Made by a program: the position numbers and the translations under genes
Notes under the pieces: generated by a model
What the model was told of the DNA's origin: nothing
What the model saw: only the letters and a program-made list of their open reading frames with translations
Database searches by the model: none
Shown: in pieces, positions 24,309-30,298 of the stretch
How the letters are laid out: each line of letters opens with the position of its first letter
How positions within the stretch are numbered: position 1 is the stretch's first letter
From: Escherichia phage vB_Eco_QOTSP
Direction: 5' to 3' (one strand)
Sequence record: OY720014
DNA: 64,000 nucleotides

Positions 24309-24521
24309 ATGCTACAATTAACTGAAAAGCAACTTCGCAATCTTACTGTGCTTCAATTAGATGAAATTCGTAGGGAAGTTGGAAATATCATTTCAGCTTT
24401 GCGTCGAGAAGTATCACTCAACCAATCTCCGGCAGACTATACTAGATTGCGAAATTTTGAAAAATACCTTGATAAAGTTAAGGCCGTGCATCGGCATAAA
24501 GTAAATACAGGACAAAAATGA
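24309..24521 (+). CDS. rI.-1-like small protein (70 aa)
   Basis: Position between tk and rI. Confidence 0.5.
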
Positions 24522-24533
24522 TAGGAGGCCTTT

Positions 24534-24827
24534 ATGGCCTTAAAAGCAACGGCACTATTTGCCATGCTAGGATTGTCATTTGTTTTATCTCCATCGATTG
24601 AAGCGAATGTCGATCCTCATTTTGATAAATTTATGGAATCTGGTATTAGGCACGTTTATATGCTTTTTGAAAATAAAAGCGTAGAATCGTCTGAACAATT
24701 CTATAGTTTTATGAGAACGACCTATAAAAATGACCCGTGCTCTTCTGATTTTGAATGTATAGAACGAGGCGCGGAGATGGCACAATCATACGCTAGAATT
24801 ATGAACATTAAATTGGAGACTGAATGA
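24534..24827 (+). CDS. rI: RI lysis-inhibition regulator / antiholin (97 aa)
   Basis: 97 aa with N-terminal signal-anchor MALKATALFAMLGLSFVLSPSIEA; position after tk. Confidence 0.8.
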   Translation: MALKATALFAMLGLSFVLSPSIEANVDPHFDKFMESGIRHVYMLFENKSVESSEQFYSFMRTTYKNDPCSSDFECIERGAEMAQSYARIMNIKLETE

Positions 24828-25210
24828 AATTCAGCGACTTTTCACAAAGTGGAAAACCTTCAAAGGCAGATGAATACTTAGGTTTATTAATGGCTGCACA
24901 AGCTTATTTTCATTCTGCACATTTTGAAACTAAAAGTTATGCTAGACACAAAGCATACGATTTTATTTTCTCCGAGTTGCCAGATTTGATTGATAAATTT
25001 GGTGAGCAATATTTGGGGTATTCTGGTAGAAAATACACACCTTCAATTCCAGATGCCAGTAAACTTCCTACCGACACAATTAAAATGATTGATCGCATAC
25101 TAGACCAATCTAACAGCATTTATAAAGAAATGCCTCCAGCCATTCAAAGCACGATAGATGATATTACTGGAATGTTTTACCAGAGTAAGTATCTTCTTTC
25201 CCTCGAATAA
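24824..25210 (+). CDS. rI.1-like protein (128 aa)
   Basis: ORF overlapping the rI stop. Confidence 0.5.
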
Positions 25211-25214
25211 CATT

Positions 25215-25239
25215 AGTCTCCTTCGGGAGACTTTTTTCA
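25215..25239 (+). terminator. rho-independent terminator
   Basis: AGTCTCCTTCGGGAGACT hairpin plus TTTTTT. Confidence 0.7.
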
Positions 25240-25247
25240 TTTTACCG

Positions 25248-25280
25248 GTTTACTTTCCGTTTGAGTTGTGGTACTATACA
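25248..25280 (+). promoter_or_regulatory. early promoter
   Basis: GTTTAC...GTGGTACTATACAACTATCA; same core as promoters at 13755, 30705 and 56458. Confidence 0.6.
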
Positions 25281-25305
25281 ACTATCAGATAAAGAGGAGA
25301 ACATC

Positions 25306-25494
25306 ATGAAAATTGAAGCACTCAATCAAGAAGGAAATATCTACGTCATCATTAATGGTGATTTTTTCGTCGACATGGATGAAGTTACTAGTGAAGAACT
25401 TGTAGAACTTCTTAAGAAACGTTATAATATGTGTGATGAAGTTGCAACTCACATGGCGTGTGCAATATTCTCTCTTTCATATGTGGTAGAATAA
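25306..25494 (+). CDS. hypothetical small protein (62 aa)
   Basis: ATG after GAGGAGAACATC. Confidence 0.45.
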
Positions 25495-25697
25495 TGATTA
25501 GTATCGAACAAGCGGATAAAATTAAGGAATTGGTAGCTTTAATTCGTAAAGCAGATGAGGAACTTAGTGACTTTGCTTGGTTTTCGTCAGGCATTGCAAA
25601 TAAAAGTATTGAAGAACTTGAAGATAAAGTTAATAATGCTGTAGAAGCGTTAGATATGTTTCTTGATGAAATTATCGATCATAATACGAGAGTTTAA
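25494..25697 (+). CDS. hypothetical small protein (67 aa)
   Basis: TAATGA overlap start. Confidence 0.45.
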   Translation: MISIEQADKIKELVALIRKADEELSDFAWFSSGIANKSIEELEDKVNNAVEALDMFLDEIIDHNTRV

Positions 25698-25699
25698 GT

Positions 25700-25894
25700 A
25701 TGCTAACACGCGAACAGTTTGAAAAAATCATTAAATTAGCACGTGATATTGAAATAGATTCATATCAATTGGCAGTTGAGCATTGTGAAGGATATTCATA
25801 CGACGGTATAGAAGCAGCTAAAAAGGATTTGGATAAATCCAAAGCTAAGTTAGTTCAATATCTTGAAATGATTAGGTGGAATAATGAAAACTGA
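25700..25894 (+). CDS. hypothetical small protein (64 aa)
   Basis: ORF 2 nt after previous stop. Confidence 0.45.
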   Translation: MLTREQFEKIIKLARDIEIDSYQLAVEHCEGYSYDGIEAAKKDLDKSKAKLVQYLEMIRWNNEN

Positions 25895-26059
25895 AAAGCA
25901 GATGTTTTTAATGAAGCTAATTGAAGAATATGCTAATGCAGTTTCTGACTATGAGTGTTCTTCTCGGGAAAGAGGTACAGCTTTCGCCAAAGAAGAAATG
26001 AAAATCATGGTTGATGCTCATACAAAGCTTCAGAATTTTATCGAAAACGTCATTTAATG

Positions 26060-26090
26060 GTTTACAAGTTGGCAAGGTTATGGTATAGTA
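26060..26090 (+). promoter_or_regulatory. early promoter (PeSL-type)
   Basis: GTTTAC -35, TATAGT -10 within stem GTTGGCAAG...CTTGTCAAC. Confidence 0.55.
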
Positions 26091-26221
26091 ATCTTGTCAA
26101 CTGCCAAGGAGAAGAGAATGAAAGTTTTGTTTGTTGTGTATGTGATGATTCAATATAATTACCCAATGTTTACTTATAATTTGGTAAACAACATTATTGA
26201 TATGATTCAGAGGAGTATGTA

Positions 26222-26407
26222 ATGACAAGTGAGCAGGCTTTTAAATTAAGAGAATTAATTGAGACGTATAGTAAAGCTGTTCATACATCAACAATTATTG
26301 ATGAATCAGCTTTCTCCGGACATGCTAACAAGATTAAATACAAAACTCTTATGGAAGAAGCTAAAGTAAATCTTGATTCTTATATTGAAACTTTAACTGG
26401 TAAATAA
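26222..26407 (+). CDS. hypothetical small protein (61 aa)
   Basis: ORF after GAGGAGTATGTAATG. Confidence 0.45.
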   Translation: MTSEQAFKLRELIETYSKAVHTSTIIDESAFSGHANKIKYKTLMEEAKVNLDSYIETLTGK

Positions 26408-26408
26408 T

Positions 26409-26951
26409 ATGAAAGCTGTAATTGAAACAACTGATTTGTTCGGTGACCTGGTTATCGAAAAACGTGATAATGTATACGTTCTGACGCAGGAAGACGATAG
26501 TATTACTATTCTTCCTATGGAACTGGCTGCGATTTTATCTTATGCTCCCTCAGGAGTTACCGGTGTAACTAATATTACAGGCGACCTCCAAGTTCGTTTT
26601 TATCGTGGCCTTTACGGCGGTAATATTGAAACTGAATTTATGTGTCTTTCTATCAACAATTGGGCAACATTCGTTGCCAAGGTGAAAGAATTCTTGGAAT
26701 CTGAAACAGTCGAAACACCCGAAAAGGCTAAACTTCAATGGGCTAAAGATCGCGGTGCTAGCATTATTAATCCAGTAGCTGCAAATTATACTACGACTTT
26801 GGATGTCAAGACTTCTTATGAAGATGGCGATGTCGTACTTGTTCGCCAAATTGATGATTCTCGAGCACATATTGTCACATTTACCAAAGACGAAGCTATT
26901 GCACTAAAGACTTATCTTGATTCTGTTATTCCAACTATGATTTCAAAGTGA
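26409..26951 (+). CDS. hypothetical protein, paralog A (180 aa)
   Basis: C-terminus ...ALKTYLDSVIPTMISK resembles the next ORF. Confidence 0.5.
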   Translation: MKAVIETTDLFGDLVIEKRDNVYVLTQEDDSITILPMELAAILSYAPSGVTGVTNITGDLQVRFYRGLYGGNIETEFMCLSINNWATFVAKVKEFLESETVETPEKAKLQWAKDRGASIINPVAANYTTTLDVKTSYEDGDVVLVRQIDDSRAHIVTFTKDEAIALKTYLDSVIPTMISK

Positions 26952-26957
26952 GGAAAT

Positions 26958-27479
26958 ATGTTTATTTCAAGTGAAAGCGGTTTAATTCGTGTTGAATTTA
27001 AAAATGACATCTTCCTTAGTCAAGGAGATGATATTATTAAAATGAGTTATGACGAAATCAAGAAAATTTGTCATACTCTTGAAAGCCGTGGAAACGTAAA
27101 TGCTGTTATTGACATTGGTGATTTATGGGTAACGCTTTATGAAGTATCCGAAGGATTTAACATTGAAGATGAAAATAACATTTTAGCTATTGATAAAAGA
27201 ACTGATTTGCTTGATGTATTAAAAGCCTATGAGCAGTCAAATGGCGGAAGAAAAGCTGTATTGATTTATCAAAAACCACATTCATGTGGAACTGCTTCAA
27301 TCATTTCAAATATTGAAGGTGAAACTGATACTTATATGTGTGTTTTAAAAGCTGGTGGTGACCGTCATCCGGATTTTATTTCTATTCGTCAAAACAATGG
27401 AGAAATTTCATTATCAAAATCAGAAGCTGAAGCTATGATTAAGTATTTAACAACCGTTACGCCTTCAATGAAAGGATAA
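26958..27479 (+). CDS. hypothetical protein, paralog B (173 aa)
   Basis: C-terminus ...AMIKYLTTVTPSMKG similar to upstream ORF. Confidence 0.5.
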   Translation: MFISSESGLIRVEFKNDIFLSQGDDIIKMSYDEIKKICHTLESRGNVNAVIDIGDLWVTLYEVSEGFNIEDENNILAIDKRTDLLDVLKAYEQSNGGRKAVLIYQKPHSCGTASIISNIEGETDTYMCVLKAGGDRHPDFISIRQNNGEISLSKSEAEAMIKYLTTVTPSMKG

Positions 27480-27481
27480 TT

Positions 27482-27943
27482 ATGATTATTAATGAAAACT
27501 CTTGGCACTATAAATTATTCAAATTGTTTAACGATGAATGGCAACGACCTAAGACACTATGCGCATATTTTTGGTCTATTGCCATTCCTACATTTTTCGT
27601 TTCTATTTTTGGGTGTGCTATACTCGTAGGGCTAACAATTATTTGTGCAGAAAGCCTACAACGTTGGCTTATTTTCGGTAGTTTATGGACTCTTCTTCCA
27701 TCGGCATTTATACTTGCGCTTTTGGTTGTTTTACTTATTATCGGTTCATTTGTTATTCCTGCACATTTGCGTGAAAAATATAAAGATTATAAATGGAAAA
27801 AGGATTATGCTTTACACGTAGAAAATATTGATAGGGCGTATAAAGGTTTACCTCCTATTCAACCCAAGAAATCGATTATCGTTGAATTTTTAAAAGCTCG
27901 TAAAGCTAAAGTATGTCCTGTTATTGAATATAAGGCTGAATGA
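27482..27943 (+). CDS. integral membrane protein (153 aa)
   Basis: Two long hydrophobic segments. Confidence 0.5.
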   Translation: MIINENSWHYKLFKLFNDEWQRPKTLCAYFWSIAIPTFFVSIFGCAILVGLTIICAESLQRWLIFGSLWTLLPSAFILALLVVLLIIGSFVIPAHLREKYKDYKWKKDYALHVENIDRAYKGLPPIQPKKSIIVEFLKARKAKVCPVIEYKAE

Positions 27944-28953
27944 TGAAAACAGTAATGAAAAGCTATTTTGGTAGTCATCTTTATGGAACTTCTACCCCAG
28001 AATCTGATGTAGATTTTAAAGAAATCTTTGTTCCTCCTGCTCGCGATATTCTTATCGGAAATGTCAAAGAGCACATGAGTAAAAACACTAACAACACATC
28101 ATCTAAAAACACTAAAGATGATATTGACCATGAACTATACAGTCTTAAATATTTCTTTAAATTAGCGGCAGATGGTGAAACTGTAGCATTGGATATGCTT
28201 CACACTCCACCTGAACTAGTGGTTAAATCTGATTTGCCTGATGTGTGGAAGTTTATTCAAGACAACCGTTCTCGTTTTTATACGACTAACATGAAATCAT
28301 ATTTAGGATATGTCCGCAAGCAAGCTTCTAAATACGGTGTCAAGGGTTCTCGTTTGGCTGCATTACGTGATGTATTGAAAGTAGTTAATCAAATCCCTGA
28401 GCAATGGGTTGATTACCAAGAAGATGGTTCTATTAAGCAGCGTCGCACTAAAGTTGAAGATATTAAGCATCGTCTTCCAGAAAACGAATTCTGTGAATGG
28501 GTGTTTCATAATCATGAGAAAACAGGCCCACAGACGTTTTACACAGTGTTGGGTCGTAAATATCAGACAACGCTTTCTCTTATTGAGCTTAAGCAGTCAC
28601 TGAACAAATTAGATGCTGAATACGGTGAACGTGCTCGTAAGGCTGAAGCCAATGAAGGTATTGACTGGAAAGCTTTGAGTCATGCTTGTCGTGGTGGACT
28701 CCAACTATTGGAAATTTACAAAACTGGTGACTTAGTCTATCCACTTCAAGATGCTCCATTTATTCTCGACGTGAAGTTGGGTAAACATCCATTTAAAACA
28801 GTTCAAGAGTTTTTGGAAGATGTGGTCGATCAAGTAGAAGCAGCATCTACTGAAGCTTCTAAGAACGGTATGCCTAAAACAGTAGACATGAGTTTCTGGG
28901 ATGACTTCCTTGAGAAGGTCTATCTTGAAAACCACCGAAGTTATTATAAATGA
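27940..28953 (+). CDS. Pol-beta-superfamily nucleotidyltransferase with extra C-terminal domain (337 aa)
   Basis: Exact NTase signature G-S-x3-G-x5-S-D-V-D-F (GSHLYGTSTPESDVDF) at residues 11-26. Confidence 0.65.
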   Translation: MMKTVMKSYFGSHLYGTSTPESDVDFKEIFVPPARDILIGNVKEHMSKNTNNTSSKNTKDDIDHELYSLKYFFKLAADGETVALDMLHTPPELVVKSDLPDVWKFIQDNRSRFYTTNMKSYLGYVRKQASKYGVKGSRLAALRDVLKVVNQIPEQWVDYQEDGSIKQRRTKVEDIKHRLPENEFCEWVFHNHEKTGPQTFYTVLGRKYQTTLSLIELKQSLNKLDAEYGERARKAEANEGIDWKALSHACRGGLQLLEIYKTGDLVYPLQDAPFILDVKLGKHPFKTVQEFLEDVVDQVEAASTEASKNGMPKTVDMSFWDDFLEKVYLENHRSYYK

Positions 28954-28955
28954 TA

Positions 28956-28980
28956 GGGAGCCTTCGGGCTCCCTTTTTTA
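28956..28980 (+). terminator. rho-independent terminator
   Basis: GGGAGCCTTCGGGCTCCC hairpin plus TTTTT. Confidence 0.7.
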
Positions 28981-29003
28981 TTTCAAAAATTTTTCACAAA
29001 ACG

Positions 29004-29035
29004 GTTTACATGGTCTGTAGTTGTTGATACTATAG
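29004..29035 (+). promoter_or_regulatory. early promoter (PeSL-type) with UP-like element
   Basis: AAAAATTTTTCACAAAACGGTTTACA...GATACTAT within stem GGTCT...AGACC. Confidence 0.6.
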
Positions 29036-29071
29036 ACCTATCAAAACAAATGAGTAAATTGGAGATACAAA

Positions 29072-29272
29072 ATGACTACTTTGAATAAACGTTTCGGTAA
29101 AGCTAAATCTGGTTGTGCAGCTGAACGTCGTTATGTTTTCGCTCAATTAGAAGATGTAGAGTATCAGATTAATCAAGTTCACATTACTGGTATCGAGCCT
29201 ATGTGTGGCCTTGAAGCTCTTCGTGAAGTTCGTGACGGGTATCGTCGTGACATCGAAGAAATGTCAAAATAA
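29072..29272 (+). CDS. hypothetical small protein (66 aa)
   Basis: ORF after GGAGATACAAAATG. Confidence 0.45.
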   Translation: MTTLNKRFGKAKSGCAAERRYVFAQLEDVEYQINQVHITGIEPMCGLEALREVRDGYRRDIEEMSK

Positions 29273-29305
29273 GTATACAAACTGATAGGACTATGTTATA
29301 GTAGT
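29273..29305 (+). promoter_or_regulatory. probable early promoter (PeSL-type)
   Basis: GTATAC(-35-like)...TATAGT inside palindrome GATAGGACTA...TAGTCCTATC. Confidence 0.45.
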
Positions 29306-29329
29306 CCTATCAAATCAAAGGAGAATAAA

Positions 29330-30298
29330 ATGAAAACTGTAACTATCAATAAGGGTATCTACTTCGGTAAAGAAATCTCTGGAACTTTTGAGCTCTTAGG
29401 CGAATGGTTCCCAGATAATGCTCCGGTAGATGCACAAGGAGATGGTAAAGTTTTTGTTGAAATTGACGGTAAACGTCGCGGTGTTTGGGTTTACAAATCA
29501 GACATTTCATATGATGGTGTAAAAGTTGAAGAAGTTAAAGAATCGTATGAAGATATGAAAACCCGCATTAATAAAAGATTTAATGTTATGGGAATGATGA
29601 CGAATGGTATTATTAATGGAAATATTCGTTCATTAATTATCTCTGGTGCGGCGGGTATTGGTAAAACGTATTCTTTAGATAAAGCTTTAAATAAAGCAAA
29701 TGATATTGGATACATTGAATATAAAAGCATTAACGGTAAAATCTCTGGTATCGGTCTTTATGAACAGCTTTGGAATAATCGTGAAGAGAATTCTGTCCTT
29801 TTGATTGATGATGTGGATGTTTTCTCTGATATGGACATTCTTAATCTTCTGAAAGCTGCTCTGGACACTGGAGAGACCCGTAAAGTCTGCTGGAGCACTG
29901 CATCTTCTTACTTAGAAGAAAAAGGCATTGAGCGTGAGTTTGAATTTAAAGGAACGATTGTTTTTATCACAAACGTTGACATTGACCGCGAATTAGACCG
30001 TGGTACTAAACTTGCTCCACATTTACAAGCATTAGTGTCCCGCTCAGTTTATTTGGATTTGGGTGTTCACACTAATGAAGAAATTATGGTCAGGGTTGAA
30101 GATGTTATTCTTTCGACTGATATGATGCAAAAGCGCGGTCTTTCTGATGAAGAAACTTATAAAGCATTATCATGGATGAAAGTCAATGTTAATCGTTTAC
30201 GCAATGTTTCACTGCGTACTGCTCTTTATCTTGCTGACTTTATTATGACCGACAAAAATGGTTGGGAAGAAATTGCTGAGGTTACTCTTCTGAAATAA
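29330..30298 (+). CDS. AAA-type P-loop ATPase with N-terminal extra domain (322 aa)
   Basis: Walker A GAAGIGKT, Walker B LLIDDVD, sensor-like TNVD. Confidence 0.65.
   Translation: MKTVTINKGIYFGKEISGTFELLGEWFPDNAPVDAQGDGKVFVEIDGKRRGVWVYKSDISYDGVKVEEVKESYEDMKTRINKRFNVMGMMTNGIINGNIRSLIISGAAGIGKTYSLDKALNKANDIGYIEYKSINGKISGIGLYEQLWNNREENSVLLIDDVDVFSDMDILNLLKAALDTGETRKVCWSTASSYLEEKGIEREFEFKGTIVFITNVDIDRELDRGTKLAPHLQALVSRSVYLDLGVHTNEEIMVRVEDVILSTDMMQKRGLSDEETYKALSWMKVNVNRLRNVSLRTALYLADFIMTDKNGWEEIAEVTLLK

Follow-up and report, generated by a model that had tools for sequence, protein, structure and literature searches.

Two adjacent open reading frames of Escherichia phage vB_Eco_QOTSP end in similar sequences, which raises the question of whether they are genuine paralogs and what such a pair would do beside a membrane protein and a nucleotidyltransferase. 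The window, a 64,000-nucleotide stretch of this phage (record OY720014), belongs to a Tequatrovirus, and the locus is 99.6% identical at the nucleotide level to that of Escherichia phage JK1. A preliminary description of the letters alone had placed two ORFs of 180 and 173 aa in front of the membrane protein gene, followed by the nucleotidyltransferase gene; we found the same order at the same coordinates. The features of the pair are as follows.

26409–26951, + strand: ORF1, 180 aa, in the slot of T4 mobD.1; C-terminal end ...ALKTYLDSVIPTMISK
26418–26708 and 26730–26939, + strand: T4_y05I_N (aa 4–100) and T4_y05I_C (aa 108–177) domains of ORF1
26880–26948, + strand: C-terminal family motif of ORF1, FTKDEAIALKTYLDSVIPTMISK, equal to the repeat III helix; K, E, Y and L columns conserved in alignments
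26958–27479, + strand: ORF2, 173 aa, second MobD.1-family paralog; C-terminal end ...AMIKYLTTVTPSMKG
26961–27242 and 27261–27470, + strand: T4_y05I_N (aa 2–95) and T4_y05I_C (aa 102–171) domains of ORF2
27411–27476, + strand: C-terminal family motif of ORF2, LSKSEAEAMIKYLTTVTPSMKG, from family alignments

Two members of the MobD.1 family

BLASTP aligned ORF1 residues 12–177 with ORF2 residues 8–171 at 29% identity and 47% positives (E = 9e-9), and both proteins carry the same two Pfam domains from end to end. A Smith–Waterman comparison of the full-length proteins yielded a score of 97, as against 30.1 ± 4.8 for 1000 shuffles (z = 13.9). The preliminary description had proposed paralogs with a shared C-terminal motif, a proposal that would not stand if the alignment were confined to the C-terminal 15 residues. 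It survives because the similarity is significant far outside them: with 20 residues trimmed from both C-termini z was 8.35 (0 of 1000 shuffles reached the score), and the N-terminal domains by themselves gave a z of 7.9.

The T4_y05I_N profile (PF24449; gathering cutoff 24.9 bits) matched ORF1 with 110 bits (E = 1e-31) and ORF2 with 112 bits (E = 2e-32) over profile positions 2–99, and the T4_y05I_C profile (PF24448; gathering cutoff 27 bits) matched them with 62.7 bits (E = 4e-17) and 81.9 bits (E = 4e-23), respectively, over positions 1–69. These scores and the shuffle tests rule out a chance resemblance. Both proteins also match phrog_1502 (E ∼1e-67), and both lie in the slot that marks the family in T4-like phages, between the mobD.2 region and nrdC.11; an NCBIfam search gave no match. 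A HMM search of all six-frame ORFs of the window revealed no family copies besides these two. No in-register nucleotide similarity is left between ORF1 and ORF2, which rules out a recent duplication and argues that their divergence is old. ORF1 and ORF2 are confirmed as true paralogs that diverged long ago within the family of phage T4 MobD.1 (UniProt Y05I).

ORF1 lies where T4 MobD.1 does, with mobD.2 on its upstream side and nrdC.11 on its downstream side. Its last ∼45 residues are almost exactly common to the T4-type MobD.1 alleles, whereas its first 135 residues represent another allele; overall identity to T4 MobD.1 is about 48%. ORF2 is only 26–30% identical to any member of the family. 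In T4 the single copy is followed by the mobD homing endonuclease gene, whereas vB_Eco_QOTSP has two copies and the membrane protein gene.

The family is acidic, with net charges of −3 to −30 and pI values of 4.1–5.8; ORF1 (−10) and ORF2 (−9) are moderately so, and Dhakavirus-type homologs reach −30 in 185 aa. A single family column, located in the C-terminal helix, reaches 80% K/R or more; for D/E the same level is reached by 11 columns, of which several lie in strands. The conserved residues of the sheets are E, D, Q, N and T. The Pfam label 'putative transcription factor' is doubtful because the family is acidic and has this single conserved basic column; caution is also advisable with the database labels 'molybdopterin-guanine dinucleotide biosynthesis protein MobD' and 'helicase loader'. 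Literature searches on mobD.1, y05I and nrdC.11 turned up no functional study of the family. The pair consists of ordinary accessory genes that hundreds of sequenced T4-like phages carry, with about 700 phage homologs on record, and the finding is accordingly a modest one, concerning genes that are common, catalogued and dispensable.

Predicted fold and internal repeats

AF2 monomer predictions were obtained for both proteins. The ORF2 model (pLDDT 82.8) consists of two successive units of four strands and a helix, followed by a third unit of five strands and a helix at residues 100–167. Confidence in this C-terminal domain was 62–85 (pLDDT) for ORF2 and below 50 for much of ORF1; the independent ORF1 model retrieved the same top matches as the ORF2 model. 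ORF1 and ORF2 are therefore predicted to be acidic proteins of three β-β-β-β-α repeats each, of which repeats I and II would form one domain of the PUR/Whirly (PC4-like) type.

Repeat III is the best conserved part of the family and ends in a helix of the pattern [FL][TS]KxEAxA[LM]xxYLxxVxP[ST]M. A comparison of repeats I and III with hhalign gave E = 1.8e-5 and a score of 26.2, as against 8.2 ± 1.9 for column shuffles, none of which (0/200) reached it, and HMMER cross-matches between N- and C-terminal domains agree with an internal repeat. Profile comparisons of repeat II with III and of repeat I with II showed no signal, so that the sequence support concerns repeats I and III. Repeat III also occurs as stand-alone small proteins (74–78 aa), encoded at the corresponding position of Tegunavirus, Jiaodavirus and Gelderlandvirus and in two cases apparently as adjacent pairs.

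Several known proteins are comparable in fold. Pur-alpha (PUR repeats I–III; PDB 3k44, 5fgo, 8chw) has a third, single repeat behind a two-repeat domain, as does the ORF2 model. From the single-strand binding proteins Whirly, MRP1–MRP2 and p24 (PBF-2) the family differs in having no conserved lysine-rich motif, the opposite net charge and no match to a Whirly model in the Pfam scan. The SsgA-like proteins (SsgB, PDB 3cm1), which serve cell division in actinomycetes, show no similarity in sequence to ORF1 or ORF2, and they consist of one two-repeat domain in which the third repeat is absent. ChmC, a Whirly-fold protein of jumbo phages, forms homotetramers, and the PC4-like protein of phage T5 (PDB 4bg7), a single-repeat dimer, has been linked to recombination-dependent replication; both are unrelated to MobD.1 in sequence and in genomic context. 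A search of PDB sequences with the family profile returned nothing relevant, and Foldseek against BFVD retrieved only family members and, weakly, uncharacterised phage proteins.

The PC4-like/PUR/Whirly fold class has been reviewed as nucleic-acid binding (PMC7549692), and phage ChmC binds RNA through clusters of K and R whose mutation to A abolishes binding (PMC11077065). ORF1 and ORF2 might accordingly be ssDNA- or RNA-binding regulators that use the β-sheet surface in the manner of Pur-alpha, p24/PBF-2, MRP1/2 and ChmC; they might even hand damaged RNA to the RNA 3′-end nucleotidyltransferase NrdC.11 encoded beside them. We consider this unlikely. Column counts and net charge gave no sign of conserved basic or aromatic nucleic-acid-contact residues on the β-sheet face, the sole conserved basic column lies outside the sheets, clusters equivalent to those of ChmC are not conserved, and neither PUR nor Whirly family models were matched in the Pfam scan at E ≤ 1. 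The overall acidity may nevertheless be compatible with a local basic patch.

The transcription unit and its history

ORF1, ORF2, the membrane protein gene and nrdC.11 form a tightly packed unit behind a T4-type early promoter. Around the pair, the unit comprises the following elements.

26061–26089, + strand: sigma-70-type early promoter (TTTACA, 17-nt spacer, TG-TATAGT), the best promoter match of the region (10/12, extended −10)
26118–26222, + strand: homolog of mobD.2, 34 aa, with which the transcription unit opens; equivalents annotated mobD.2 in e11/2, T4, PP01 and T2
26222–26407, + strand: DUF7438 protein, 61 aa (PF24219, E = 1.4e-15; phrog_4859)
26234–26815, + strand: replaced mosaic cassette, comprising the DUF7438 gene and ORF1 codons 1–135 (blastn of 24500–29500 against four loci)
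27482–27943, + strand: membrane protein, 153 aa (phrog_944), with two hydrophobic segments at ∼aa 27–57 and 62–95 by hydropathy
27940–28953, + strand: NrdC.11, Pol-beta-type nucleotidyltransferase of the RlaP family, 337 aa (PF10127; phrog_388)
28955–28974, + strand: intrinsic terminator hairpin with a T-run behind it, at the end of the unit; T4 and e11/2 have an annotated terminator in the corresponding position

The promoter stretch is 96% identical to that of T4, for which record U76612 annotates −35 and −10 signals at the homologous place upstream of mobD.2. The name 'helicase loader' that some records give to the DUF7438 protein is unsupported. A MIINxNSWHxK motif marks the N-terminal part of the membrane protein, whose C-terminal tail (aa 95–153) is basic (net +7) and ends in KARKxKVCPxIE. 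The last protein of the unit matches PF10127 with 43.9 bits (cutoff 23; E = 3e-11) and phrog_388 with E = 7e-138, and its translation carries the Pol-beta GS...DxD motif GSHLYGTSTPESDVD; it is a predicted RlaP-type RNA 3′-nucleotidyltransferase. T4 NrdC.11 has been named a member of RlaP cluster 5 in the study that describes RlaP biochemistry (PMC12776372). Under laboratory conditions T4 can do without the unit (PMC9825161).

The preliminary description had also suggested that the pair may form one functional neighbourhood together with the genes for the membrane protein and nucleotidyltransferase, and synteny across Tevenvirinae genera supports this. The order MobD.1-family gene, membrane protein gene, nrdC.11 was observed in Tequatrovirus, Dhakavirus, Tegunavirus, Jiaodavirus and two metagenomic T4-like contigs, and is kept in at least four Tevenvirinae genera; membrane protein homologs lie directly downstream of a MobD.1-family gene in six other lineages. 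Gelderlandvirus SEA1 keeps the MobD.1-family and membrane protein genes, with no nucleotidyltransferase annotation found within the locus compared. Such conservation is weak evidence of a common function because the gene order of T4-like phages is largely vertically inherited. T4 has kept mobD.1 and nrdC.11 without ORF2 and the membrane protein gene, and in one T2 record both paralogs are frameshifted and the membrane protein gene and nrdC.11 are kept; since these losses are independent, the parts of the locus are not strictly interdependent. Extra genes for proteins of 175 and 136 aa that lie between the membrane protein gene and nrdC.11 in two other loci are not relatives of MobD.1. The idea of a Rosetta-stone fusion, in which the extra N-terminal part of the phrog_944 profile would be a MobD.1 C-domain, was dropped because ORF1 and ORF2 do not match phrog_944.

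The region is a mosaic. The flanks of the replaced cassette are 94–98% identical to PP01, T4 and T2, whereas the cassette itself is unmatched there and about 70% identical to the JK45-type allele; the cassette, with its DUF7438 gene, is missing from this place in T4 and PP01. Alleles in the ORF1 slot show identities of 48%, 68% and >95% in genomes that are otherwise 94–98% identical. T4 retains the first 16 nt of ORF2; its mobD homing-endonuclease cassette has taken the place of the rest of ORF2 and of the membrane protein gene. The full module is present in PP01 and RB32 as it is in vB_Eco_QOTSP.

The preliminary description had attributed the pair to a local duplication followed by divergence. 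Common descent and divergence stand; duplication in place is unproven, ORF2 being about equally distant from the ORF1-slot alleles (27% identity) and from the MobD.1 proteins of other genera (26%), two groups that are 32.5% identical to each other. In a midpoint-rooted NJ tree the ORF2 clade branches outside the two groups, with a bootstrap support for these short sequences that is moderate (75–83%). To judge by these distances, the split may be ancient, ORF2 may be fast-evolving, or it may have arrived by recombination. An import of ORF2 as a distant MobD.1 homolog from another T4-like lineage, which would be compatible with any function, is a possible but rather doubtful origin: it fits the equidistance, the tree, the mosaicism and the single copy found in Dhakavirus and in some Tequatroviruses (JK45), but faster evolution after duplication would produce the same tree, and a search of 1.84 billion representative proteins revealed no donor lineage in which the single copy is ORF2-like.

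Candidate function of the pair

Divergent alleles, repeated loss or replacement, early expression and dispensability are typical of phage genes for host range or counter-defence. ORF1 and ORF2 could be acidic decoys, that is, nucleic-acid mimics or inhibitors of host defence or other host proteins that act alone, their adjacency to the membrane protein and NrdC.11 being merely inherited. The early promoter, the recurrent losses and replacements, the divergence of ORF1-slot alleles in otherwise similar genomes, the strong acidity of the Dhakavirus-type homologs and the dispensability in the laboratory (PMC9825161) are in line with such a role. We nevertheless rate it as even less likely than nucleic-acid binding, since the two proteins themselves are only moderately acidic, known anti-defence families were unmatched, and ORF2 is highly conserved under purifying selection with no sign of diversification.

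We favour, with a probability of roughly 55% for the explanation as a whole, that ORF1 and ORF2 are acidic three-repeat paralogs of the MobD.1 type which dimerize through repeat III and serve as adaptor or ligand-binding subunits of an accessory module. Because one repeat of this fold is not enough to complete a domain, repeat III most likely pairs with a second repeat III, which would give homodimers or ORF1–ORF2 heterodimers, as in repeat III of Pur-alpha. The stand-alone repeat III proteins and their occasional adjacent gene pairs support such pairing indirectly. The dimers would then act as adaptors or ligand-binding subunits in RNA repair or host interaction, a role that is our best guess and weakly inferred. 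A protein partner, for example the basic tail of the membrane protein, is more probable than classical nucleic-acid binding because ORF1 and ORF2 are negatively charged and without conserved basic residues. The most elaborate version of this reading, and the least likely of the scenarios discussed here, is that the MobD.1 family is a phage-specific, acidic offshoot of the PUR/PC4-like fold which gave up nucleic-acid binding, and that a heterodimer of the two paralogs, joined through repeat III and seated on the membrane protein by way of its basic cytoplasmic tail, recruits or regulates NrdC.11; the locus of T-even phages would then encode a membrane-anchored tRNA/RNA-repair counter-defence module that was partly lost in T4 when mobD landed.

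T4 is the best-studied phage, yet roughly one in two of its genes, mobD.1 and nrdC.11 among them, is still without a known role. That MobD.1-type proteins are predicted to belong to the PUR/Whirly fold class yet lack its nucleic-acid-binding chemistry provides a concrete, testable handle on one of them. T4 carries an atypical, partly deleted version of the locus; for this reason, and given the RlaP link, we suggest vB_Eco_QOTSP or PP01 as better models of the module.

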